Counted from the stretch's first letter, positions 8,063 through 20,282 are shown. The stretch is DNA of 64,000 nucleotides from Candidatus Woesebacteria bacterium (GCA_003484955.1 DMZH01000001.1:23848-87847); one strand, 5' to 3'. Made by a program: numbers and translations. The notes: a model not told the origin generated them from the letters alone.

Positions 8063-8674
8063 ATGTTTAAATTACCAAAACTTCCATACTCTTTCGACAC
8101 ACTAGAGCCCTACATTGATGCCCGGACCATGCAAATTCATCATGATAAGCATCATCAGACATATGTAGATAAGCTAAATGCCGCATGTGCAAACGATGCC
8201 TCACTGGCAGGAAAAACAATTGAAGAGATCTTAAGCGACCCTGCGAATATCAACGGCGATATCAGAACAGCAATAATCAATAACGGCGGAGGTCATCTAA
8301 ACCATAGTTTCTTTTGGAAAATCATGTCTCCGAACTCCCCTTTTAACCCAAAAAGCAATGTCGGAAAAGAAATCATAAATACTTTCGGGAATTTTGAATC
8401 ATTTAAAGAAAAATTTTCAAATACGGCAGTGGGTAGGTTTGGAAGCGGTTGGGCCTGGCTTGTCGTCAATAAAGGAAGATTGGAGATTGTTGATACCCAA
8501 AACCAAAATACACCCATATCGATCGGCATGAATCCGATTCTTTGCCTTGATGTTTGGGAACATGCATATTACTTGAAATATCAAAACAAAAGAGCCGATT
8601 ATGTCAATGCCTGGTGGAACGTGGTCAATTGGAAAAAAGTTGAGGAGAATTTTAGTGAAGCTATCGCTCAATGA
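8063..8674 (+). CDS. Fe/Mn superoxide dismutase
   Basis: LPKLPYSFDTLEPYIDARTMQIHHDKHHQTYV and DVWEHAYY are metal-ligand signatures of Fe/Mn SOD. Confidence 0.9.
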   Translation: MFKLPKLPYSFDTLEPYIDARTMQIHHDKHHQTYVDKLNAACANDASLAGKTIEEILSDPANINGDIRTAIINNGGGHLNHSFFWKIMSPNSPFNPKSNVGKEIINTFGNFESFKEKFSNTAVGRFGSGWAWLVVNKGRLEIVDTQNQNTPISIGMNPILCLDVWEHAYYLKYQNKRADYVNAWWNVVNWKKVEENFSEAIAQ

Positions 8675-8758
8675 TCACGATGCCTTTGAATTGTCGTGGC
8701 CTTGTTCAGTACTTGACTTGGAGAAAAAAATCGTGATAACCTGGCTGATCATTTAATA

Positions 8759-9499
8759 ATGAAAAAACACTTTGCCCAAAAAGGTTTTATAGCTCTTCTC
8801 CCTCTTCTGGTTATCTCATTTTTAGTCGTTTCCGGCTTTGCCATTTATGGCGGCCAGGGGACATCAGAAACACCGAGCCAGGTTTTGAGCGAAACCAGTG
8901 AAGCCGAATCAGGAGAAAACAGTGAACAAACCCAAACCAGACTGGCCAATGAAAGCGAGGGTGACCAAATCCGACTCGAAACCCAAAACCAGGAAAGAGA
9001 GATCGAAGAGGAAAATGAGACTCCGGAACCGGAAGAGACACCCGAACCCGAAGAATTTGAAGAAGAAGATGAAGTTGAAGTTGGGGAGGGTACCAATAAA
9101 TCAAAGATTAAAATCAGAAGCGGCAAGAACAAGTTTGAGTTTCAACAGGAAGGCGCAAAGTTTAGCGTTGAAAGCGATTTTCCTCTTTCGGTTGACCCCG
9201 TCACAAGGGAACTTACAGTAACCACACCGGCCGGCAACAGAGTAGTTGCTGTTTTACCTCAACAGGCAATCGACAATATGCTCGCAGTTGGAATAGTTAC
9301 CACAACAACCGAAGTAAATCTTGAAACGGAATCTGACGGAAGTTTGTCCTACAATATTGATGGAGCCAAAGACGAAAAACTACTGGGTGTCTTTGACGTA
9401 GCCGTCCCAAAGAATTTGGTTGTTTCCGCCCAAACGGGACAGGTGTTGACTGTAAACCAGTCGGTATTCTCCAAAATCCTAGACTTCCTTTCAATCTAA
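8759..9499 (+). CDS. Secreted or anchored acidic repeat protein
   Basis: It has an N-terminal hydrophobic anchor. An E/P/T-rich tract contains ETPEPEETPEPEEFEEEDE repeats. The C-terminal is beta-rich. Confidence 0.5.
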   Translation: MKKHFAQKGFIALLPLLVISFLVVSGFAIYGGQGTSETPSQVLSETSEAESGENSEQTQTRLANESEGDQIRLETQNQEREIEEENETPEPEETPEPEEFEEEDEVEVGEGTNKSKIKIRSGKNKFEFQQEGAKFSVESDFPLSVDPVTRELTVTTPAGNRVVAVLPQQAIDNMLAVGIVTTTTEVNLETESDGSLSYNIDGAKDEKLLGVFDVAVPKNLVVSAQTGQVLTVNQSVFSKILDFLSI

Positions 9500-9512
9500 C
9501 AGACCAACCTCT

Positions 9513-9725
9513 TTATTTACCCCCCTTTTTCCAAAGGTAACGGATTGCGGCAACCAAGAGTGACACAACCAAAACCCAAACAATTAAGTGCGCTATCCCG
9601 AAAAATCCGGCAAAAGGCTGCACTCCGCCGTAATAACTTTGCATCATCTGCTTCATATAATCAGGCGCAGAACTCCAATCACCGTTAAAATAATTACCTC
9701 CCATCATTCCCATCATTTTTATCAC
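9513..9725 (-). CDS. Small Met/Gly-rich membrane protein
   Basis: It opens MIKMMGMMGG...YMKQMMQSYYGG, then has one TM (LIVWVLVVSLLVAAI) and ends RYLWKKGGK. Confidence 0.45.
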   Translation of the reverse strand: MIKMMGMMGGNYFNGDWSSAPDYMKQMMQSYYGGVQPFAGFFGIAHLIVWVLVVSLLVAAIRYLWKKGGK

Positions 9726-9749
9726 CCCCTTTAACCAAAAACTAGCAGC

Positions 9750-10592
9750 TCATATAATTTTGCATAATTCATTAATTTCTTTTTCGACTTGAGATATTTT
9801 GGCAGTGTCCAATCCCAAATTCTGTAGTATATCTTTATTATGCAACAATTCTTTACAAAGAACCATATCTTCATTCAAGAGCTGTTGTTTATCCCCTGCA
9901 TCCAGAGTAGTTAAACATGTAACCGGATGTAATCCCGATTGGTCAATGAGCACTTCCAAGCCCTCATTTACAGGGTAGTTCCACCCTATTGGCTTCATAC
10001 CGACACATTGAGCATAAGTAATTGCATCGCTTGTTAATTTGGTATTGGTAACCAACCAAGCCTCATGAAATTTCTGAGTATGATCTTTATTTTTTAACCA
10101 GGCATTTCGCACGTCCTCAAAGCGTGCTTGTATATAAAGAGGTATCTTAACATCCGATTTAGTGCCCGGCTGATTATGGAACTTACACTCGACCATGATA
10201 TGTTGATTTTCTTTCTCGGCTACAACATCAATTTCATGGGAAACACAAATCCCCTGAACAATGACGCCGACTTGAGTGGAAAACCCCTTTGTTTTCAAAA
10301 CCTCACTGACCAACTTTTCAAACGGATGACCTGTCGGACCCAATTCCATAATAGCCCGTTTTAAGGAGTACTTTCCCGCTACCGAGCGATCATGTTTATT
10401 AAGCAGTGAAAACGCGTGCTTGTAGATATCTTGCGTGCTTGCACCGTTTTTGAGTTCTCCCGTAATATGTGAGACTATATTCTCGACAACATCCGGAGAA
10501 GTCCCTACCCGTTCGAGTGAACGGCGCAGTTTATCTTCCGAAAATGGCTCCAGCTCACCCGAGGCTTTTTTAATCAATATTTGTTTATTCAT
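9750..10592 (-). CDS. ATP-cone domain fused to an Mrr-like PD-(D/E)xK restriction endonuclease domain
   Basis: The N-terminal ~90 aa look ATP-cone-like (ILIKKASGELEPFSEDKLRRSL). The C-terminal has EIDVVAEK...VECK, matching D...ExK nuclease motifs. Confidence 0.55.
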   Translation of the reverse strand: MNKQILIKKASGELEPFSEDKLRRSLERVGTSPDVVENIVSHITGELKNGASTQDIYKHAFSLLNKHDRSVAGKYSLKRAIMELGPTGHPFEKLVSEVLKTKGFSTQVGVIVQGICVSHEIDVVAEKENQHIMVECKFHNQPGTKSDVKIPLYIQARFEDVRNAWLKNKDHTQKFHEAWLVTNTKLTSDAITYAQCVGMKPIGWNYPVNEGLEVLIDQSGLHPVTCLTTLDAGDKQQLLNEDMVLCKELLHNKDILQNLGLDTAKISQVEKEINELCKII

Positions 10593-10598
10593 ATCTGT

Positions 10599-11315
10599 CT
10601 ACTTCTTCTTAAAACTTATCGTCCTTGCCCCAACCAAAAATTCATACATTGGTCCCCAGACAAGACCCCATGAGAGCCCCCAAAGCATTTCTGTCCAAGG
10701 TATGTGTTTAAAAATAATTATCCCCTGCTCCGTTCCCGACAGTTTCCAGATTCTCTCTACCCAAAAGTGACTTTGAGGGAAAAACTCCTGTCCCAAGAAA
10801 TAGATTATAAACATTGTACCGGCTACCAAAAATGCTGAACCTACAGCATGAATTAACAAATCCGGCCGCAAAACTAACATAACTATCGCAAATATAACCA
10901 TTCCAATAGAACTCGCATAAATTGAGTTTAAGCCTAATAAGTTATTCAAAATAATCATGGCAAACCCTTCTATTGCAAAAAAGACCAATAAAAACAGTTC
11001 ATGCCTTCCTTTTTTCTCCACACATTTACAAACACCTCTTACAAATAAAGACTCATAGGCAAAGGCCCCTATCCCTCCGATGGAAAATCCAAAGAGTAAA
11101 TCTTCAACTCCGCCAATAATCGGTAACGGCAATGCGATTTCAGGCTTCCAATAATCCGCAAAATACCAGATCTCAGAAATCGGGCCAAATGAAGCCGTAA
11201 TCAAGCTCATAATCAACATCGGACGCCTTAGGCTTTTTACTCTCCAGTAGATAAATAACCACACAGCCAGAAAGAAAAAATTCGCAATGAGATAAGTATA
11301 TTTGTAATTAGCCAT
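10599..11315 (-). CDS. Polytopic membrane protein, lycopene-cyclase-domain (CrtYcd)-like
   Basis: It has multiple TM helices. Two acidic motifs in loop regions (GGVEDLLFGF, GPMYEFLVG) resemble the PxE(E/D) repeats of this family. This is a weak call. It overlaps the ABC ATPase gene by 8 nt. Confidence 0.35.
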   Translation of the reverse strand: MANYKYTYLIANFFFLAVWLFIYWRVKSLRRPMLIMSLITASFGPISEIWYFADYWKPEIALPLPIIGGVEDLLFGFSIGGIGAFAYESLFVRGVCKCVEKKGRHELFLLVFFAIEGFAMIILNNLLGLNSIYASSIGMVIFAIVMLVLRPDLLIHAVGSAFLVAGTMFIIYFLGQEFFPQSHFWVERIWKLSGTEQGIIIFKHIPWTEMLWGLSWGLVWGPMYEFLVGARTISFKKK

Positions 11316-12153
11316 TATAATTGGTCTGATTTAAGTTACCGACAAACTTTTCAGGTTCTTTTTTGAATTCGTTCATACACCCCTCGGAGCAAAAAAAGTA
11401 TTCTTTCCCCTTAATGGTCGTTTTATTAGCCCCTTTTTCTATGCTCATTCCACATACAGGATCGGTTGTCATTTTACCTATTTCTTTAAATATGCCATCT
11501 TCAAGCCATAGGATTCTATCCGCCACATCTCTGATTCTATTGTCATGAGAGACGATAAGAACGCTTTTTCCTTTCTTTTTGGCGACTTCTCTTAGGAGTT
11601 CCATTACTTCGTGTCCGACTTTAGAATCCAAGTTAGCTGTCGGCTCATCGGCCAAAATTATATCCGGGTCATTAACCAGAGCCCGTGCAATTGCCACCCT
11701 TTGTTTCTCTCCTCCGGAAAGATTTGCCGGAATATCGTTCATTCTGTCTGCCAATCCCAAACGCTTCAGAATCTCTTCGGACTTTTCTACCGCATTACCC
11801 CCATTTCCGGCAAATTCCGCAACCACCTGAACATTTTCTTTTGCAGTTAGGGAAGCCAAAAGAAGAAATTGCTGAAAAATAAAGCCTACCTCGGAAAGTC
11901 TTTTTTTGGTTAATATGTCCTCACCCATTCCGCCAATATCACTTCCGTTTAAAATAACTTTACCTGAGGTTGCCTTTAGTATCCCTCCACCTATTGAAAG
12001 GAGAGTCGTTTTACCGGAACCTGAAGGTCCCATTATTAAAACAATTTCTCCCTTTTTAACTTCCAGATCGACTCCGTTGAGCGCTTTCACCTGGGCATGA
12101 CCTTCACCAAACGCCTTGGTTATTTTGTGTAAGTCTAAAATTATGTTTGTCAT
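11308..12153 (-). CDS. ABC transporter ATP-binding protein (MacB/LolD type) with a C-terminal YHS metal-binding domain
   Basis: Walker A reads GPSGSGKTT, the signature is LSGGEKQRVAIARAL and Walker B is ILADEPTANLD. The C-terminal 45 aa read DPVCGMSIEKGANKTTIKGKEYFFCSEGCMNEFKKEPEKF, matching the YHS/TRASH pattern. Confidence 0.85.
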   Translation of the reverse strand: MTNIILDLHKITKAFGEGHAQVKALNGVDLEVKKGEIVLIMGPSGSGKTTLLSIGGGILKATSGKVILNGSDIGGMGEDILTKKRLSEVGFIFQQFLLLASLTAKENVQVVAEFAGNGGNAVEKSEEILKRLGLADRMNDIPANLSGGEKQRVAIARALVNDPDIILADEPTANLDSKVGHEVMELLREVAKKKGKSVLIVSHDNRIRDVADRILWLEDGIFKEIGKMTTDPVCGMSIEKGANKTTIKGKEYFFCSEGCMNEFKKEPEKFVGNLNQTNYNG

Positions 12154-12176
12154 GACAAAGTTGTCACAAACTCCGT

Positions 12177-13340
12177 CTATGATCTAAAAACCATAGCGGG
12201 ATCTGTTTTGGCAATTCTTGTTATTGGAATATAGGTCGCAACAAAGCTCATGATAATTGAGGAAGCAAATGCCAAAAGATATATTTGTAAGTTAAATTCC
12301 ACAACCATATTGATTACATCCACCACCAACTTCGAAACCAAGAAAGCCAGTATTACACCAAAAATATAACCAATAATCGATGACCACAGGGCTTGTTCAA
12401 AAACAATCAAAAAAAGTTTCTTTCTGGAGGCGCCGATAGCTTTCAGGACACCATATTCCTTTATTTTTTCCATTGTTGCCGTGTAAATAGTCAACCCCAC
12501 AACAACCGCTCCCGTAGCAAAACCGATAATTGTAATTACAAAAATAATCGGGACAAATGTATCCATTAAAGCTTTAGCATTGCTCTTGGCAAAGTCGCTT
12601 TTTTTATAAGCGGTGATTCCCGGAATGTTTGACTCCAATTTCTCCGCTATTTCTGAAGCACGGGAGGGATCGGTCAATGAAATGAGGATGAAATTCGCCC
12701 TGCCTTTTTGCCGCAAAATTTCCTGCGCTTCATCCAAATCAACAAATGCCCTTGTATAAAGCATCATGTTGTTTTTATCCGTAATTCCGACAATAGTGAA
12801 TACCTCATCAAATACTTCGACCGAATCGCCAATTGTAAGTCCGTTTTGTTTGGAAAAAACCCTATCAACGATAATTTCGCGTTTTCCGGGAGTTTTGGTT
12901 CCGGACAAAAGTATCGGCGGGCCCCCGACACCCGTTTCCGTATCAAAACCCATGAGGGTGATTGTTGCCTTTTTTGCTTTTTTATTTTCACCTTTCTTGC
13001 GTCCCGCAAAGTCTACGATTTTACTTCCGTCTTCTTCCCTAACCCGGACATTTGTGGTTCTATTTACAAGACCATATACTTTTCCGCCGCTTATGGTTTC
13101 CACTTGGCTCATTTTGTTTGCATCAAGAAGCGAAAAAGTGTGTGACATGTCGGTTACACCCTCCTGAGCGATAACCAAATCTGCAGCGAAACTCTCAACA
13201 TAATCTATAAGAAGTCTGTTGAAAGCATTATAGATACCAAGAAGAAATACTATCAGGAGAATCGAAAAGGCTACACCCCCAACCGAAACAAAGAATCTGG
13301 TTTTTTCAGCAAATAAATTTTTGCGGGCGATACTCACCAT
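12177..13340 (-). CDS. ABC transporter permease, FtsX/MacB family
   Basis: An N-terminal TM is followed by a large extracytoplasmic domain and a C-terminal FtsX-like 3-TM bundle. It overlaps the adaptor gene by 7 nt. Confidence 0.8.
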   Translation of the reverse strand: MVSIARKNLFAEKTRFFVSVGGVAFSILLIVFLLGIYNAFNRLLIDYVESFAADLVIAQEGVTDMSHTFSLLDANKMSQVETISGGKVYGLVNRTTNVRVREEDGSKIVDFAGRKKGENKKAKKATITLMGFDTETGVGGPPILLSGTKTPGKREIIVDRVFSKQNGLTIGDSVEVFDEVFTIVGITDKNNMMLYTRAFVDLDEAQEILRQKGRANFILISLTDPSRASEIAEKLESNIPGITAYKKSDFAKSNAKALMDTFVPIIFVITIIGFATGAVVVGLTIYTATMEKIKEYGVLKAIGASRKKLFLIVFEQALWSSIIGYIFGVILAFLVSKLVVDVINMVVEFNLQIYLLAFASSIIMSFVATYIPITRIAKTDPAMVFRS

Positions 13341-14338
13341 CTGATTATTTCTCCATCCTCAACTCCTTCCAGAACTTCCCAATTTACACCGTCAAAGATT
13401 CCAAGTTTTATCTTCTTCTCACCTAAACCGGTTTTAACAAAACTATTCCCTCCATTTTTGTAGACAGCTTCTTTTGGAACCAGTAAAACATCTTTCCTAT
13501 CTTCAAGTGTAATTTCCGTATCTCCGTTTATTCCGATGATCGGCTTTTCGGGAAAGTTTTCAAGTTTTATTCTGACACCGACAACGTCACCACCTTCAGT
13601 TTGAGTCACGGACTGTGCAATATAATAAACTTCACCATCAAATTTTCTATCCGGATATGCATCGAAAGAAACTACTGCCTTTTGACCGACTTTTACATTC
13701 TGTATATTCTCTTCGTCTACCTCTGCCGAAAAGTAAACCGTGTCAGGATCAATCAAGACTATTCCGGGTTCCAGAGAAAATGCTGAAACCCATTCGTTAA
13801 CTTCTAAACTTTGAGTTATAACAACACCCGAAAAAGGAGCATAAAGTGCACTATCGGTGATAGACTTTTTAGCACTCTCCACAGATTTTACTGCTTTATC
13901 TTTTTTTACTTCCGCTTGAGTTCTTGTTTGTTTTTGAGTGTAGGTTTCATCCGTATCGTGTCCTTTAACCTCATCATATATTTTGGCAAGCTCTGCCTCT
14001 GCTTGACGCAAATCGTCTTGTGCGCGGCCTAAAGACAAAGACAGCTCTTCTACGTCAAGACGGGCCAGAACTTCATCTTTCTTAACCTGATCTCCCTCAG
14101 AAGCTTCGACCGAATCCACCCGTCCCGTTGCCTTAAATGAAAGTTCTGCTTTTTTTTCGGCATCAAGTTTTCCGGAAGCCGATAAAAAAGAGCGTATATC
14201 GCCCCTGCCTATTTTACCCTCATTTTTCGGATTTACCTGAATTAAAAAATAAGCCAGAAGCACGGCTAGAACGAGTCCAATCAGGATAAAAGGCTTTTTG
14301 AAAAAAACTTTCATTTTTAGAATAATACCTGTCTTCAT
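13334..14338 (-). CDS. Periplasmic adaptor (HlyD/MacA membrane fusion protein family)
   Basis: It has a signal/anchor, a coiled-coil-rich region (LRQAEAELAKIYDEV) and a beta-barrel C-terminus. It forms an operon with the MacB-like permease and ATPase. Confidence 0.75.
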   Translation of the reverse strand: MKTGIILKMKVFFKKPFILIGLVLAVLLAYFLIQVNPKNEGKIGRGDIRSFLSASGKLDAEKKAELSFKATGRVDSVEASEGDQVKKDEVLARLDVEELSLSLGRAQDDLRQAEAELAKIYDEVKGHDTDETYTQKQTRTQAEVKKDKAVKSVESAKKSITDSALYAPFSGVVITQSLEVNEWVSAFSLEPGIVLIDPDTVYFSAEVDEENIQNVKVGQKAVVSFDAYPDRKFDGEVYYIAQSVTQTEGGDVVGVRIKLENFPEKPIIGINGDTEITLEDRKDVLLVPKEAVYKNGGNSFVKTGLGEKKIKLGIFDGVNWEVLEGVEDGEIIRW

Positions 14339-15366
14339 ACAAAGCTTGCGGTGATACCCAAAGATTGGTCAGTTTTTTGAATAGATTTTTGAGGATCCTG
14401 CTCAATGCCTGAGATTGCTCTGATGGCATCTATATTTTCAGGAATAACTATTGCCTCATTGTGAACTTGATAATAAAAAGCGACGTCCTTGCCCTCCACA
14501 TGCAATAAATCCTCCCAAAATGCGACTTCCCACATATCCGCCCTTGGCCTACCCAAATCCCGCATGAGTTCAGCCAATTGATTCTCTGCCGTCAGTCCGT
14601 CTTTATAGTTAACAGCAACCACCCTCGGACTTGATTTCAAAATTTTTACCACATCATCCTTAGACATCTCCTGATTTAGACGCAGAAAAGCCAAATGAAG
14701 ATGCCCTATTGTGGTCGGAACAGCAATCGCTACCGATAGAATATTTAAGTTCGGTATAACTGTTTGGGCATCCGGTCCTTGATGAGAAGGAATCGAATCT
14801 TCCAAAACTATTGTTCCCAAAGGGCCTTTTAAGTGTGAATCAATGGGGTCTGTCCCGCGCCTTGCCAGTGCCACGTATGCCTTTTCAAGAATCCCTTTTT
14901 GGGTAAACGGGAAAAGAACTCTACAAATCGCCGTAGTATTGCAGGAAACCACTCTTAGACTTTCCTTTCCTATAGCATCTTTATAATTTACCTCCGAAAC
15001 AAAAGAAAATCCGGTAGTGTCGTGCGCTTCTCCCCCCTGAAATATTGATTTAACCTTAGCAGTATCATATTTTGCCTTGTTTTCTTTTCCTATTCCTGCC
15101 GGAGTTGCATCAATTACTACATCTATACTGTTCATGAAATGATCAAAATCACCATTACATCTTACCTGCGCTTTCATTAAATTGCTGCAGGCCTCGGTGT
15201 CTGCTCCAAATATTCTGATTCCTTTTTTGTTTGCAGAAAATAATCGATAATCAGGAGTCCTTGCGGTTACTCCGATAAGTTCCATATCATCTTGCAGTAG
15301 AACAGCATCGGCAATTCTTTTTCCGATTACACCATAACCATTAATACCGACTTTTATTTTATCCAT
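14335..15366 (-). CDS. gap: Glyceraldehyde-3-phosphate dehydrogenase, archaeal type II
   Basis: VGINGYGVIGKRIADAV is the NAD-binding motif. The catalytic SCNTTAI is present. The length and pattern fit archaeal-type GAPDH. Confidence 0.8.
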   Translation of the reverse strand: MDKIKVGINGYGVIGKRIADAVLLQDDMELIGVTARTPDYRLFSANKKGIRIFGADTEACSNLMKAQVRCNGDFDHFMNSIDVVIDATPAGIGKENKAKYDTAKVKSIFQGGEAHDTTGFSFVSEVNYKDAIGKESLRVVSCNTTAICRVLFPFTQKGILEKAYVALARRGTDPIDSHLKGPLGTIVLEDSIPSHQGPDAQTVIPNLNILSVAIAVPTTIGHLHLAFLRLNQEMSKDDVVKILKSSPRVVAVNYKDGLTAENQLAELMRDLGRPRADMWEVAFWEDLLHVEGKDVAFYYQVHNEAIVIPENIDAIRAISGIEQDPQKSIQKTDQSLGITASFV

Positions 15367-15369
15367 AAA

Positions 15370-15525
15370 TTAACAACATCCTTTCTTCTCTTTTGATTTC
15401 TCAAGGTCTGACTTTCCAAGTTTATATAAATATCTGCCGACTAAAGACTTGGGAACTACATCTTCCTTTACGTCAGATCCTTTAATCTTACCTTTTTTTG
15501 AATGATTTGAACAACAATCAGACAT
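15370..15525 (-). CDS. Unannotated 51-aa Lys-rich peptide with terminal Cys pairs (MSDCC...KKGCC)
   Basis: I translated it by hand from the minus strand: MSDCCSNHSKKGKIKGSDVKEDVVPKSLVGRYLYKLGKSDLEKSKEKKGCC. The ATG lies 5 nt after the stop of the YHS gene. It falls below the 60-aa track cutoff. Confidence 0.35.
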   Translation of the reverse strand: MSDCCSNHSKKGKIKGSDVKEDVVPKSLVGRYLYKLGKSDLEKSKEKKGCC

Positions 15526-15530
15526 AATAA

Positions 15531-15725
15531 TTACTTGCCTTTTCTAAACTTTTCCCTTTCTTCCTCGGGAACCCAATAATCGGGATATGCGTCAAATAAG
15601 TGTTTATCGTTTTCCGTGTCAAAATAATACACCTTCCCTAAAAACTCCGATGAAAACTTCATTCGGGATTTGGGCATAACCATCCCACACACGACATCTT
15701 TTACCATTTCTTCCGGATTGTCCAT
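15531..15725 (-). CDS. YHS-domain small protein
   Basis: DVVCGMVMPKSRMKFSSEFLGKVYYFDTENDKHLFDAYPDYW matches the YHS pattern. The start is trimmed to the ATG at 15725, which overlaps the upstream stop by 1 nt. Confidence 0.6.
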   Translation of the reverse strand: MDNPEEMVKDVVCGMVMPKSRMKFSSEFLGKVYYFDTENDKHLFDAYPDYWVPEEEREKFRKGK

Positions 15726-15982
15726 TACTTTGTAAATCGATTGTAGAGCCAGGCAAACAGCCATCCTGTGAGCCAGGAAACGACCGTAAAGCTAACAAGT
15801 CCCAACAAAAATCCTTCCGGTGCACTTTTCCAAACTCCGCTCAGGTCTAACATATGCATCCAGCTTTCCGCCACGGATTTATATAAACCAGGAAGCCAGG
15901 AGGCAACCACAAAACAGCCTACAAAATAAATAGCTCCGAGTAAACCACTGGCATTTGCAAAGGCAGATTCTTTTAATTTCAT
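15725..15982 (-). CDS. Small two-helix membrane protein
   Basis: It has two hydrophobic helices and is co-directional and contiguous with the YHS gene. Confidence 0.4.
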   Translation of the reverse strand: MKLKESAFANASGLLGAIYFVGCFVVASWLPGLYKSVAESWMHMLDLSGVWKSAPEGFLLGLVSFTVVSWLTGWLFAWLYNRFTK

Positions 15983-15999: not shown

Positions 16000-16857
16000 T
16001 TATAATTCCCAATTGAAAACTACATTTTTACCGTCTATCCCTTTTATGTTAAGCCCCACGCTTGAGGCTTTACCGGACAACTTATTAAAAACCAGATCTC
16101 CCGAAACATGATGCCCCGCGCTTTCCCCCGTCCATTTTACAGGCTTGTAGATGTTACCCGTGTCATCAACCACAACTACTATCTTTGTATAGTCATAGTT
16201 TAGATCAATTGAATGATTATCGAGTGAAACCGTAAAAACCATTTCTCGCCCACGAGCCAGTTGTTTGGGGGTTATTTCCATATCCACAACACCAACCTGC
16301 TTTACCTGAGCCTCCATCGGATTTACTTTTACGCTGGCGCCAAGTGAGGACGGCTTTTTGGCAAACACATCTTTTGTTATAGTAAACACGCCGAAAGCCA
16401 GAACCAAGACGGCTGATGACATAAATAAATATTTAAAGACGGGTTTATCCGTAAGACGCATAAGTTTGGCCATATAAAAAATTCCCAGAATATTCATAAG
16501 TACGCCAAAAATCAAAAAGTCTTTCTGATAGGCAGTTAAGACCAAACCCAAAGCCGACACTCCCAAGATCGGCAAAAGATCACTGGCATGGTGAACACAA
16601 CAAAGAAGCATTGAAACACCGGACACTGTCGATGAACTTCCAACCAGACGGAAACCCTTCCGGACAAGCTGAAAAAGACCCATCTGCACACCGAAGCTTA
16701 ATATGAGGAGACTTATCCAGGGCTGCAAGATTACAAACTGATCAAGCGAATGACTAATGCCTCCACTCAATAAAGAACTCAGAAGGAAATAAAAAAGTGC
16801 CAGTCCCAATGATCCAAAAATTGACCATTTAGTAAAAATTTGCCAAGGTTTTGTCAT
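16000..16857 (-). CDS. Membrane protein with a C-terminal extracytoplasmic beta-rich domain
   Basis: It has ~5 TM helices including LLCCVHHASD. The C-terminal ~110 aa are soluble and contain HH. It overlaps the SCO1-like gene by 4 nt. Confidence 0.5.
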   Translation of the reverse strand: MTKPWQIFTKWSIFGSLGLALFYFLLSSLLSGGISHSLDQFVILQPWISLLILSFGVQMGLFQLVRKGFRLVGSSSTVSGVSMLLCCVHHASDLLPILGVSALGLVLTAYQKDFLIFGVLMNILGIFYMAKLMRLTDKPVFKYLFMSSAVLVLAFGVFTITKDVFAKKPSSLGASVKVNPMEAQVKQVGVVDMEITPKQLARGREMVFTVSLDNHSIDLNYDYTKIVVVVDDTGNIYKPVKWTGESAGHHVSGDLVFNKLSGKASSVGLNIKGIDGKNVVFNWEL

Positions 16858-17531
16858 TTATTCAGTTTTGAAATGTTTGTGAGAAGTTCCTTGTTGTTTA
16901 TCCTCATATCCGGATCGTCTTTTTCATAGCGTATAACCCCATCTCTATCAACAACTACATATGTATGCCCCGGAAATTGGCCCCTGTGCATCGAGGAATC
17001 AACTGTCAAGACCCCGTAACTTTCCGAAACTTTTCTGTCAGAATCAAGTAAGACCGTGGCTGAGGCAATTTTTGGATCCTCCCTGACTACACCATCCCAA
17101 TCGGCTTTTGAATCTACAACGACAACCAAAACAACGGTATTCTCCTTTGAAAATCCTGAATCTTTTGTAAAAGCATTTATTTGATCCCAGCAGGAAGGAG
17201 CACACATGGCTCCCTCACTGAAAAACAAAACCACATTCTTTCCCTTAAAACTTGCAAGATCAACTTCGCGTCCGTCATATGACTGAAGTTTAAAGAGAGG
17301 AGCCGGAGAGCCCAGAAGTGATTGAAATTTGGTATTATCAGCGGGTGGGGGCGGAGCATGCATACCTGCCATATCATCCACCTCAGCCGGCGTTGTCGAA
17401 GCGCCCGCAATTTTACTGTTGCCGGATTTAAGAAGATCCAGTGCCAATATTGCCACAACCAATACCGCGATAAATCCAAGCGCGATTCCGGCTGAAATTA
17501 AAACCTGTTTAATGCTTATACTCTCTTCCAT
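16854..17531 (-). CDS. Membrane-anchored thioredoxin-fold protein, SCO1/SenC-like (CxxxC)
   Basis: A TM anchor is followed by FFSEGAMCAPSCWDQ, a C-x3-C like the SCO1 CPDVC motif rather than a thioredoxin CxxC. A downstream His is in HTYVVVDRDG. Confidence 0.5.
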   Translation of the reverse strand: MEESISIKQVLISAGIALGFIAVLVVAILALDLLKSGNSKIAGASTTPAEVDDMAGMHAPPPPADNTKFQSLLGSPAPLFKLQSYDGREVDLASFKGKNVVLFFSEGAMCAPSCWDQINAFTKDSGFSKENTVVLVVVVDSKADWDGVVREDPKIASATVLLDSDRKVSESYGVLTVDSSMHRGQFPGHTYVVVDRDGVIRYEKDDPDMRINNKELLTNISKLNK

Positions 17532-19802: not shown

Positions 19803-19964
19803 TTATTTGATGTATTTTTCGGGGTTCATGTCAAAACGGTCCTTGCAACTTTCAGAGCAGAAAAAATACGCTTTATCTTTGTATTCCACCTCGTATTTTG
19901 TTTTCTCTGGAAGTTCCATTCCACAGACCAAATCCAATAATAAAGATTGTACAGATTTTGACAT
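19803..19964 (-). CDS. Unannotated 53-aa YHS-domain protein between csoR and copA
   Basis: I translated it by hand: MSKSVQSLLLDLVCGMELPEKTKYEVEYKDKAYFFCSESCKDRFDMNPEKYIK. The ATG overlaps the csoR stop (TAATG). Confidence 0.6.
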   Translation of the reverse strand: MSKSVQSLLLDLVCGMELPEKTKYEVEYKDKAYFFCSESCKDRFDMNPEKYIK

Positions 19965-20230
19965 TATCTTCTTTTAAATACTTTCAGCAGTTCGTCTACC
20001 GCCTTTTTCTTATTGCTTTTGAATTGTTCCGAAACATGAATCGTAAGATGTCTTTCCAAAATTAGGCCGTCCAGACTTTTAAGAGAATTTTGAATTGCCA
20101 GGCTTTGGTCAAGGATGTCCGTACAATATTGATCCTGATCGATCATTTTATTAAGGCCGTCCAACTGCCCTTTAATAATATTGATACGTTTTTCCGCAGA
20201 GGCCTTGTTTTCGTCTCGAAGATGTTTCAT
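19964..20230 (-). CDS. csoR: CsoR/RcnR-family metal-sensing transcriptional repressor
   Basis: It is an 88-aa helical protein. YCTDIL...ERHL carries the C-H-C ligand pattern of the CsoR/DUF156 family. Confidence 0.8.
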   Translation of the reverse strand: MKHLRDENKASAEKRINIIKGQLDGLNKMIDQDQYCTDILDQSLAIQNSLKSLDGLILERHLTIHVSEQFKSNKKKAVDELLKVFKRR

Positions 20231-20241
20231 GAGTTATACTC

Positions 20242-20261
20242 TATACCCGTGGGGGGGTATA
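20242..20261. promoter_or_regulatory. GC-rich inverted repeat TATACCC-N6-GGGTATA within the csoR promoter, a candidate CsoR operator
   Basis: The repeat tataccc/gggtata flanks a G7 tract. It lies between a TTGACA -35 (minus strand, 20262..20267) and the csoR ATG at 20230, and resembles known CsoR operators. Confidence 0.45.
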
Positions 20262-20282
20262 TGTCAAGCGTTAAGCTTTATT

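Follow-up and report, generated by a model that had tools for sequence, protein, structure and literature searches.

We describe an ATP-binding cassette (ABC) transporter cassette located at positions 10599 to 14338, on the minus strand, of a 64,000-nucleotide (nt) stretch of DNA from a Candidatus Woesebacteria bacterium (GCA_003484955.1 DMZH01000001.1:23848-87847; this whole stretch is referred to below as the window), in which the ATPase ends in a YHS domain. We observe that this ABC-YHS fusion recurs in several bacterial phyla and that the cassette is part of a copper-stress gene run starting at a CsoR-family regulator gene. We give an even chance to the cassette encoding a copper-induced type VII ABC mechanotransducer, the ATPase of which would be gated by copper at a cytoplasmic YHS domain. 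The window carries an RNase P of class A, and its nearest relatives are Woesebacteria/Microgenomates, i.e., Patescibacteria. The four minus-strand genes, including a membrane protein gene at the downstream end, are open reading frames (ORFs) in exactly the order and at the coordinates of the original prediction, which had been made from the sequence alone:

13334..14338, minus strand: adaptor (membrane-fusion protein); HlyD_D23 82.4 bits (Pfam), TIGR01730 135 bits against a cut-off of 94.9
12177..13340, minus strand: FtsX/MacB-type permease with a periplasmic core domain; FtsX 53.8 bits and MacB_PCD 46.8 bits, best NCBIfam match DevC at 69.7 bits, below cut-off
11308..12153, minus strand: ABC ATPase, consisting of a nucleotide-binding domain (NBD; residues 1-225) and a C-terminal YHS; ABC_tran 115.7 bits over residues 25-173
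11338..11466, minus strand: YHS module of the ATPase, residues 230-272; Pfam YHS 59.1 bits against a cut-off of 30.3
10599..11315, minus strand: Lycopene_cyc-domain polytopic membrane protein of 238 amino acids (aa); PF18916 35.7 bits against a cut-off of 27

The adaptor and permease genes overlap by 7 nt, the ATPase and Lycopene_cyc genes by 8 nt, and a gap of 23 nt separates permease and ATPase. The identification of the ATPase tail as a YHS domain is borne out by the Pfam match (PF04945), which covers 44 of 47 profile positions and lies within one unbroken ORF, 8 to 10 residues past the last strand of the NBD. Its motif reads D231-P-V-C234-G-M236 ... F254-C255-S-E-G-C259, and D231, C234, M236, F254, C255, G258 and C259 are invariant in a 66-sequence alignment. 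Run over all six frames, the YHS profile finds exactly three modules in the window (the ATPase tail, 19803-19964 and 15531-15764), so that the tail is indeed the third, as predicted; it is 48% identical to the free 53-aa YHS protein (19803-19964) of the same gene run.

The ABC_tran plus YHS architecture is not confined to this gene. Of the 120 best database relatives (55 to 95% identity), at least 115 have both PF00005 and PF04945, and the junction and motif (LWLEDGxFKExxxMxxDPVCGM...x20...YFFCSxGCxxEF) are found in 116, from independent assemblies. Searching a profile of the junction against one genome per GTDB species yielded 396 confirmed ABC-YHS loci in at least five phyla, isolate genomes included; the best 80 of these 396 are mostly from Chloroflexota, with further members in Actinomycetota, Deinococcota, Dormibacterota and Patescibacteria. 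The cultured Deinococcota Meiothermus hypogaeus DSM 23238 and Calidithermus chliarophilus DSM 9957 carry the fusion. Against 1.84 billion representatives, the profile gave 936 matches (E<=1e-10), a number that is not used as a fusion count because multi-YHS repeat proteins and fragments confound the list. The ORF is fused in each of the 89 loci (L001-L089) retrieved with the ATPase family. The free YHS genes of the same operon, and one such gene beside a YHS-less transporter in locus L171, might suggest that misassembly or a frameshift has merged an ABC ATPase gene with a small YHS gene. We rejected this explanation as extremely improbable, given the uninterrupted ORF and a junction that is identical in the 116 relatives and in the 396 species genomes; the recurrence of the in-frame fusion, seen in no fewer than 115 of these 120 relatives and in all 89 retrieved loci, excludes a frameshift. 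Database names of these proteins, of which hundreds are deposited, are generic, e.g., "ABC transporter ATP-binding protein."

We also observe that the YHS module varies in number and can be lost cleanly. In some members (P0022, P0033) the YHS/TRASH module is doubled in tandem, and two close relatives (P0013, P0014) have lost the YHS in frame from ATPases that are otherwise 76 to 79% identical; the loss in P0013 looks like a clean in-frame deletion. The YHS-less P0014 (76% identical) has a free YHS gene directly upstream of its adaptor, which constitutes a Rosetta-stone pattern; its locus (L171 3316-6284) reads DUF5676-YHS(57 aa)-adaptor-permease-ABC, and fused and split forms thus coexist among close relatives. 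Since P0014 keeps a separate YHS gene and the tail is 48% identical to a free YHS protein, these sequences suggest that free YHS proteins and the NBD may work together, perhaps through YHS-to-YHS copper transfer.

In an AlphaFold2 (AF2) model of the ATPase (mean pLDDT 88.6, pTM 0.77), the YHS is predicted as three strands plus a helix (pLDDT 76-87). No solved structure spanning NBD and YHS was found in the PDB, where sequence and fold matches end at about residue 225 and cover the NBD only. Phenol hydroxylase provides the nearest solved YHS, at its C terminus, with ribosomal eL24 and MYM zinc fingers as other near relatives, all of which are structural metal sites. This kinship favors a structural, zinc ribbon-like appendage that would stabilize the NBD or its dimer without regulating it, the copper context then reflecting the target of the transporter, and TRASH/YHS folds do bind Zn or Cd in crystals (PMC4626032). 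The clean loss of the YHS in P0013 and P0014 nevertheless indicates that it is not needed for folding, and where it is lost, as in P0014, a separate YHS gene stands in the operon. In addition, the invariant Met beside the first Cys (C-x-M) provides a thiolate/thioether set. Such a ligand set is typical of Cu(I), not of Zn, and we regard a purely structural role as unlikely.

With respect to transporter class, the best PDB sequence matches of the NBD are 5XU1, MacB, MJ0796, YbbA, YtrE, LolD and BceA (MacB/LolD/FtsE clade), and the best 50 Foldseek matches in the PDB are the same set (TM-score to target 0.88-0.94); Spr0694, HrtA and FtsE are also among the best sequence and fold matches. The permease follows the type VII pattern, with an FtsX domain (residues 268-381; 53.8 bits, cut-off 25.5) and a MacB_PCD extracytoplasmic domain (residues 17-236; 46.8 bits, cut-off 27) in Pfam. 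Judged by these sequence matches and by HlyD_D23 (82.4 bits) in the adaptor, the three proteins are assigned to the type VII (MacB-superfamily) ABC systems, at the superfamily level, in agreement with the MacB/FtsX-type transporter originally predicted. All three fall short of the curated cut-offs for LolD/LolCE, MacB and DevA/DevC/DevB: the NBD scores 237.1 bits against 295.8 for DevA, 208.9 against 966 for MacB (NF007826) and 207 against 308 for LolD, the permease scores 69.7 against 290.35 for DevC and 24.2 against 966 for MacB (NF007826), and the adaptor, which scores 46.3 against 129 for DevB, passes the generic TIGR01730 as its sole curated model. DevCBA membership was therefore rejected, as was MacB proper, the NBD and permease being on separate genes and scoring under the NF007826 cut-off. 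As for the term "MacAB-like tripartite" used in the original prediction, an adaptor is encoded with the transporter, but a "tripartite" pump of the MacAB-TolC kind is unproven because no outer-membrane duct (TolC/OEP) gene is present in the operon, the remainder of the window not having been scanned for OEP, and the scores remain below the MacB, Dev and Lol cut-offs. An outer membrane is generally considered to be absent from Patescibacteria.

MacB-type transporters have no transmembrane substrate path and convert cytoplasmic ATP hydrolysis into extracytoplasmic movement, a process termed mechanotransmission (PMC5985334). In a survey in which the window proteins served as phmmer queries against the six-frame ORFs of 85 non-redundant ABC-YHS loci, the FtsX permease gene is directly upstream of the ABC-YHS gene in 81 loci. 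Patescibacteria have one permease plus an adaptor, whereas the loci of other phyla usually have a pair of different permease genes, with no adaptor detected.

The same survey links the fusion to copper, a co-occurrence that the original prediction had raised for the window. Among the 41 long loci (at least 15 kb of flank), a CopA-like P1B ATPase is found within 10 kb of the ABC-YHS gene in 27, and at least one copper marker (CopA, CsoR, extra YHS, cupredoxin, multicopper oxidase or DUF2933) in 30; we estimate the chance expectation for a gene at 1 to 2 copies per genome at roughly 1 to 2%, and copper genes are present in none of 17 unrelated control contigs of similar length. P1B signatures are found in 37/37 neighboring ATPases. 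A csoR gene is immediately adjacent to the transporter in at least eight loci, 18 of the 19 CsoRs of related loci showing the Cu(I) C-H-C fingerprint, and L011, L017 and L031 each have a perfect TACCCC-N5-GGGGTA operator at the promoter of the transporter genes. A relaxed operator search (1 mismatch) placed a site near the transporter start in 8/85 loci only, and the three perfect sites alone are used here.

De novo clustering of neighbors revealed variable partners, namely OmpR-type regulators (20 loci), HAMP kinases (12), class I methyltransferases (16), DUF2933 (13) and DUF305 (6). Because these other neighbors vary between loci, the constant core is reduced to the permease(s) plus ABC-YHS, and copper is the dominant surrounding theme. 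In the Chloroflexota loci L021, L026, L029, L030, L032, L035, L061 and L063, an OmpR-type regulator and a HAMP histidine kinase directly flank FtsX-FtsX-ABC-YHS, an arrangement that recalls Bce-type transporter/two-component modules. In five loci of Chloroflexota (L037 10322-11365, L057, L068, L073 and L078), the gene that directly follows ABC-YHS encodes an M23/LysM peptidase, and L090 has such a gene nearby (8660-9754); this recalls the FtsEX-EnvC pairing. The copper island of L001 contains an Lgt gene, and the neighboring CopA of this locus itself carries a YHS.

Such partners raise the alternative of a LolCDE/FtsEX-like extractor or activator, which would clear copper-damaged envelope proteins (e.g., mis-acylated lipoproteins) or control a wall hydrolase, with no external metal handling and the YHS still acting as trigger. 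The two different FtsX permeases without adaptor outside Patescibacteria, as in LolCDE, speak for it, as do the peptidase genes, the Lgt gene and the lack of an extracytoplasmic Cys-, His- or Met-rich site. The peptidase and Lgt partners are nevertheless present in a minority of loci only, and the adaptor of the window version suggests a channel-forming pump, so we give this alternative little weight. An output of envelope repair or hydrolase control would be compatible with the YHS as a sensor.

In the window, the cassette belongs to a tightly packed minus-strand gene run from 20230 to 9750, with gaps of at most 69 nt and many overlaps of 4 to 8 nt. Its gene order is CsoR-family, YHS, P1B ATPase, AhpC/TSA, 285-aa, DUF5676, YHS, 51-aa, GAPDH, adaptor, permease, ABC-YHS, Lycopene_cyc and ATP-cone/Mrr_cat, and the features outside the cassette are as follows:

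20238..20267, minus strand: promoter-like site TTGACA-18-TAGAGT, the best minus-strand match of the region (10/12)
20243-20260, in the promoter spacer, upstream of the regulator gene: CsoR-type operator ATACCC-N6-GGGTAT, a perfect inverted repeat and the sole match in the window
19964..20230, minus strand: CsoR/RcnR-family metal-sensing repressor, first gene of the run; Trns_repr_metal 75.6 bits, best NCBIfam match RicR at 49.6 bits, below cut-off
19803..19964, minus strand: free YHS protein of 53 aa; Pfam YHS 60.7 bits
17538..19733, minus strand: copper-type P1B ATPase with N-terminal HMBD and a CPD motif; TIGR01511 573.6 bits against 397, Pfam E1-E2_ATPase and HMBD
16854..17531, minus strand: membrane-anchored AhpC/TSA (thioredoxin-fold) protein, recurring in related loci; AhpC-TSA 68.6 bits
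16000..16857, minus strand: Memb285, a membrane protein of 285 aa; no Pfam or NCBIfam match
15725..15982, minus strand: DUF5676 protein with two transmembrane segments; Pfam 69.9 bits
15531..15764, minus strand: free YHS protein of 77 aa (64 aa from an inner ATG); Pfam YHS 31.4/31.3 bits, cut-off 30.3
15370..15525, minus strand: Lys-rich protein of 51 aa, an ORF with CC pairs at both ends (MSDCC...KGCC)
14335..15366, minus strand: type II (archaeal-type) GAPDH, its stop overlapping the adaptor start; NF003251 437.9 bits against a cut-off of 185
9750..10592, minus strand: ATP-cone plus Mrr_cat (PD-(D/E)XK) protein (Pfam), 6 nt downstream of the Lycopene_cyc gene

The operator sequence is ATACCCCCCCACGGGTAT; it has the form of CsoR operators, which are G-tract pseudopalindromes (PMC3902906). 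The repressor behind it is RcnR-like in its ligands and CsoR-like in its operator. In the P1B ATPase, CPD (ACPDALGLATP) replaces the canonical CPC of the transmembrane metal site, the YN and MSISS motifs being kept; the CPD variant adjoins ABC-YHS in six other loci (L008, L009, L053, L060, L067 and L088), compared to 13 with CPC.

The copper efflux genes around the transporter are also what favors a direct role of the YHS in substrate hand-off, in which it would collect cytoplasmic Cu(I) and pass it to the permease for export across the membrane. The free YHS proteins encoded nearby, the tandem YHS/TRASH modules of P0022 and P0033, reminiscent of the multiple metal-binding domains of CopA, and the Met-rich columns in or near the transmembrane segments of the permease family (e.g., 78% Met at window I269) point in the same direction. 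The window permease, however, has Ile at this best-conserved Met column, there is no conserved permease Cys, and a dedicated Cu(I) exporter, CopA, is already present in the same operon. MacB-type permeases lack a transmembrane substrate channel, so that export of a metal-bound substrate, as entertained in the original prediction, fits the type VII mechanism poorly if the YHS is to deliver that substrate (PMC5985334), and we consider hand-off improbable. The other suggestion made there, metal-gated export, remains the best reading that we can infer from these data.

How copper gating might work can be outlined from a precedent in M. phlei, where an adenylyl cyclase has a C-terminal YHS on an 8-aa linker that switches the dimeric enzyme on at 1-10 uM Cu, with an Asp and three Cys proposed as metal ligands (PMC4626032). 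This ligand set is present in the ATPase tail (D231, C234, C255 and C259), which is cytoplasmic because no membrane segment lies between NBD and YHS. Its likeliest role would be to sense metal at the post-translational level. Transcription from the operator-bearing promoter, to judge from its sequence, would rise once the repressor binds metal. Cu(I) would then reach the ATPase YHS, either free or via the two standalone YHS proteins of the operon, and its binding may alter the engagement of the two NBDs in the dimer, such that ATP hydrolysis would be switched on only at high cytoplasmic copper. ATP turnover would in turn move the extracytoplasmic domain and the adaptor, since MacB-type permeases have no transmembrane substrate path, and would thereby perform work outside the membrane. 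This work could be the removal from the cell surface of copper itself, of a copper complex or of an envelope component damaged by copper; the substrate, the binding of copper and the direction of regulation are the conjectural parts of this scheme.

Several observations weigh against copper gating. About a quarter of the long loci are without a copper marker within 10 kb, and in L004, an 80% identical relative, the adjoining genes are instead ArsA-like, methyltransferase and thioredoxin genes. The YHS domains of toluene/phenol hydroxylases, the kind to which the nearest solved YHS belongs, are not known to be copper-regulated. The ligand positions of the window repressor (H3-C36-H61-H65) are RcnR-like H-C-H-H rather than the Cu(I) x-C-H-C, and its metal is not certain because this fingerprint is that of Ni/Co-sensing RcnR; C-H-H is also the arrangement in the CsoR of Thermus. 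Within the operon, scans for promoters and terminators gave no excess over shuffled controls, so its status as a single transcript is inferred from gene spacing only. No conserved Cys is found anywhere in the permease, the periplasmic domain of which has no Cys at all, and a partly conserved Met/His patch at residues 64-67 is the sole candidate for an extracytoplasmic metal patch and too weak for a copper-site claim; hence no extracytoplasmic copper site is evident. In addition, the cyclase work used Cu2+ in vitro and called the sensor role "probable" (PMC4626032). The residue 64-67 patch reads D-M-x-H in single-permease systems, N-M-H-M in the second of two permeases and N-L-L-G in the first.

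Among known systems, the monoderm MacAB-type pumps Spr0693-0694-0695 of Streptococcus pneumoniae (PDB 5XU1) and YknXYZ of Bacillus subtilis have the same adaptor, FtsX permease with MacB core domain and MacB/LolD-clade NBD, and 5XU1 is the best PDB sequence match of the window NBD (E 8.5e-55; TM-score to target 0.92-0.93). Such pumps work without an outer membrane (PMC5985334). Their NBDs differ in having neither a YHS nor another C-terminal extension, and they serve in peptide and antibiotic resistance, not in copper operons. The cyanobacterial glycolipid exporter DevCBA is likewise encoded by three separate genes, DevA and DevC giving the best NCBIfam matches for the NBD (237 bits) and permease (69.7), but it has no YHS, uses a TolC-like duct and has a role in the heterocyst envelope, and the window proteins lie under its cut-offs of 295.8, 290 and 129.

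With respect to the YHS itself, the M. phlei enzyme, a class III adenylyl cyclase, shares the C-terminal placement, the linker of about 8 residues, the dimeric catalytic domain and the D plus three Cys (PMC4626032). It differs in that the catalytic domain is a cyclase, not an NBD, and in that the output is cyclic AMP instead of the proposed ATP-driven mechanical work. The C-terminal regulatory domains on the importer NBDs of MetN (C2), ModC and MalK sense cytoplasmic solute and modulate NBD dimerization ("trans-inhibition"). Here the likeness lies in a small ligand-binding domain at the NBD C terminus, and the MetN NBD is among the PDB matches of the window ATPase; the differences are that these domains have ACT-like or TOBE folds instead of YHS and that the systems are importers and the control is inhibitory, as opposed to the activation proposed here. 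We know of no type VII ABC system with an NBD-appended ligand-binding domain. The N-terminal domains of P1B ATPases (HMA, YHS and HMBD) are likewise cytoplasmic, Cys-based, variable in copy number, regulatory and outside the transport path, but are attached to a P-type pump that moves the ion across the membrane. The nearest analogue is FetABCDEF of Campylobacter jejuni, which combines a YHS, two FtsX permeases with an ATPase, and thioredoxin-fold proteins in a single metal-related cluster (PMC10783030), paralleling the Chloroflexota version with two FtsX permeases, ABC-YHS and AhpC-TSA. In this system, however, the YHS is on a separate protein with eight transmembrane segments, FetA, and predicted to be periplasmic, the response is to iron limitation, and the genes stand beside FetMP, not CopA/CsoR (PMC10783030).

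The fourth gene of the cassette has a history of its own. The original prediction saw no obvious transporter role for it, in keeping with its Lycopene_cyc domain (residues 130-227; homologues are annotated "lycopene cyclase domain-containing protein"), but also called it coupled to the transporter, which does not hold. The protein is absent from the 85 ABC-YHS loci except for the 95% identical relative L006, and FtsX/adaptor genes are beside its close homologues (at least 57% identity, all Patescibacteria) in 1 of 17 loci only; we rejected a fourth transporter subunit on these context statistics. In 15 of these 17 loci the close homologues are located in copper islands, accompanied by CopA (13 loci), CsoR (11), the 285-aa protein (10), DUF5676 (9) and GAPDH (6), in the recurrent order csoR-copA-(285-aa protein, often two genes)-DUF5676-YHS-51-aa protein-GAPDH-Lycopene_cyc. 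The adaptor-permease-ABC-YHS cassette stands between GAPDH and Lycopene_cyc in the window, L006 and L090. The simplest reading of these gene orders is that the cassette was inserted into a pre-existing Patescibacteria copper island, of which Lycopene_cyc appears as the terminal core gene. Since the cassette is read as an insertion, the 8-nt overlap with the ATPase gene would reflect operon packing, not partnership.

Copper genes are found in 0/17 loci of distant Lycopene_cyc homologues (below 45% identity), and no carotenoid genes are found in the 17 close loci, where the neighbors are copper genes. The family has no invariant Cys, His or Met; acidic and aromatic residues are invariant. A CxC in a loop (VRGxCxCE) is conserved in the majority of members. 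One homologue, P0229, is fused or adjacent to a UbiA prenyltransferase, and a UbiB kinase gene precedes the homologue in L090 (6233-7918); these neighbors are hints of a possible isoprenoid or quinone link inside the copper island.

Several other island proteins deserve mention. Memb285, an undescribed copper-island family, has homologues in nine ABC-YHS loci and 10/17 Lycopene_cyc loci (L008 4915-5801, L009 1853-2742 and L090 1395-2218, among others), often as two genes of about 148 aa; it has a transmembrane motif LLCCVHHASD and a C-terminal beta-rich domain, and the split genes are directly upstream of the adaptor. The 51-aa Lys-rich protein keeps its place between YHS and GAPDH in L006, L091 and seven Lycopene_cyc loci, and could be a small peptide that binds copper. 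The type II GAPDH may be a copper-induced stand-in for a copper-sensitive glycolytic enzyme; it is conserved in Patescibacteria copper islands (L006, L090, L091, L094, L102, L106 and L113), usually just before Lycopene_cyc, and GAPDH-like matches are also near ABC-YHS in the Chloroflexota loci L043 and L073. An odd companion for metal genes, the ATP-cone plus Mrr_cat plus AF1548-like_C protein recurs in Patescibacteria copper islands (L006, L094 1614 and L096 9587). A 70-aa Met/Gly-rich protein with a single transmembrane segment (9513-9725, minus strand) closes the minus-strand run, and an Fe/Mn superoxide dismutase gene (8063-8674, plus strand) is just past it, the L006 counterpart matching Pfam Sod_Fe.

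Copper resistance as known so far involves P-type ATPases, RND pumps (e.g., Cus), multicopper oxidases and chaperones, and we know of no MacB-type ABC system with a recognized role in it. In about 8 million literature full texts, we found no account of an ABC-YHS fusion, nor of copper resistance that involves a MacB-type system; a Corynebacterium glutamicum match concerned cell-division FtsX. In the present loci, a MacB-type system accompanies copA/csoR in Chloroflexota, Actinomycetota, Deinococcota and Patescibacteria, in hundreds of species altogether, many of which are without an outer membrane and Cus-type pumps. The conserved Patescibacteria copper island defined here holds several function-unassigned proteins, and the cultured carriers M. 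hypogaeus DSM 23238 and C. chliarophilus DSM 9957 make the hypothesis directly testable; Ktedonobacter racemifer is a further cultured carrier.

If the YHS does gate the ATPase, this would be the first ligand control of a type VII ABC motor by an NBD-appended sensor, and the poorly understood YHS would gain a second enzymatic read-out that is easy to assay, namely ATPase activity in the presence and absence of Cu. A bolder and more doubtful proposal is that of a new class of copper defense, the first mechanotransmission ABC machine with a motor allosterically switched by a cytoplasmic metal via an NBD-fused domain, in which Cu(I), perhaps passed from YHS to YHS by the small free YHS proteins, would license ATP-driven work at the outer face. 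Among exporters, it would be the counterpart to the "trans-inhibition" of importers. If true, monoderm bacteria without Cus-type periplasmic pumps could thereby clear copper, or copper-poisoned lipoproteins or wall enzymes, from their envelope.

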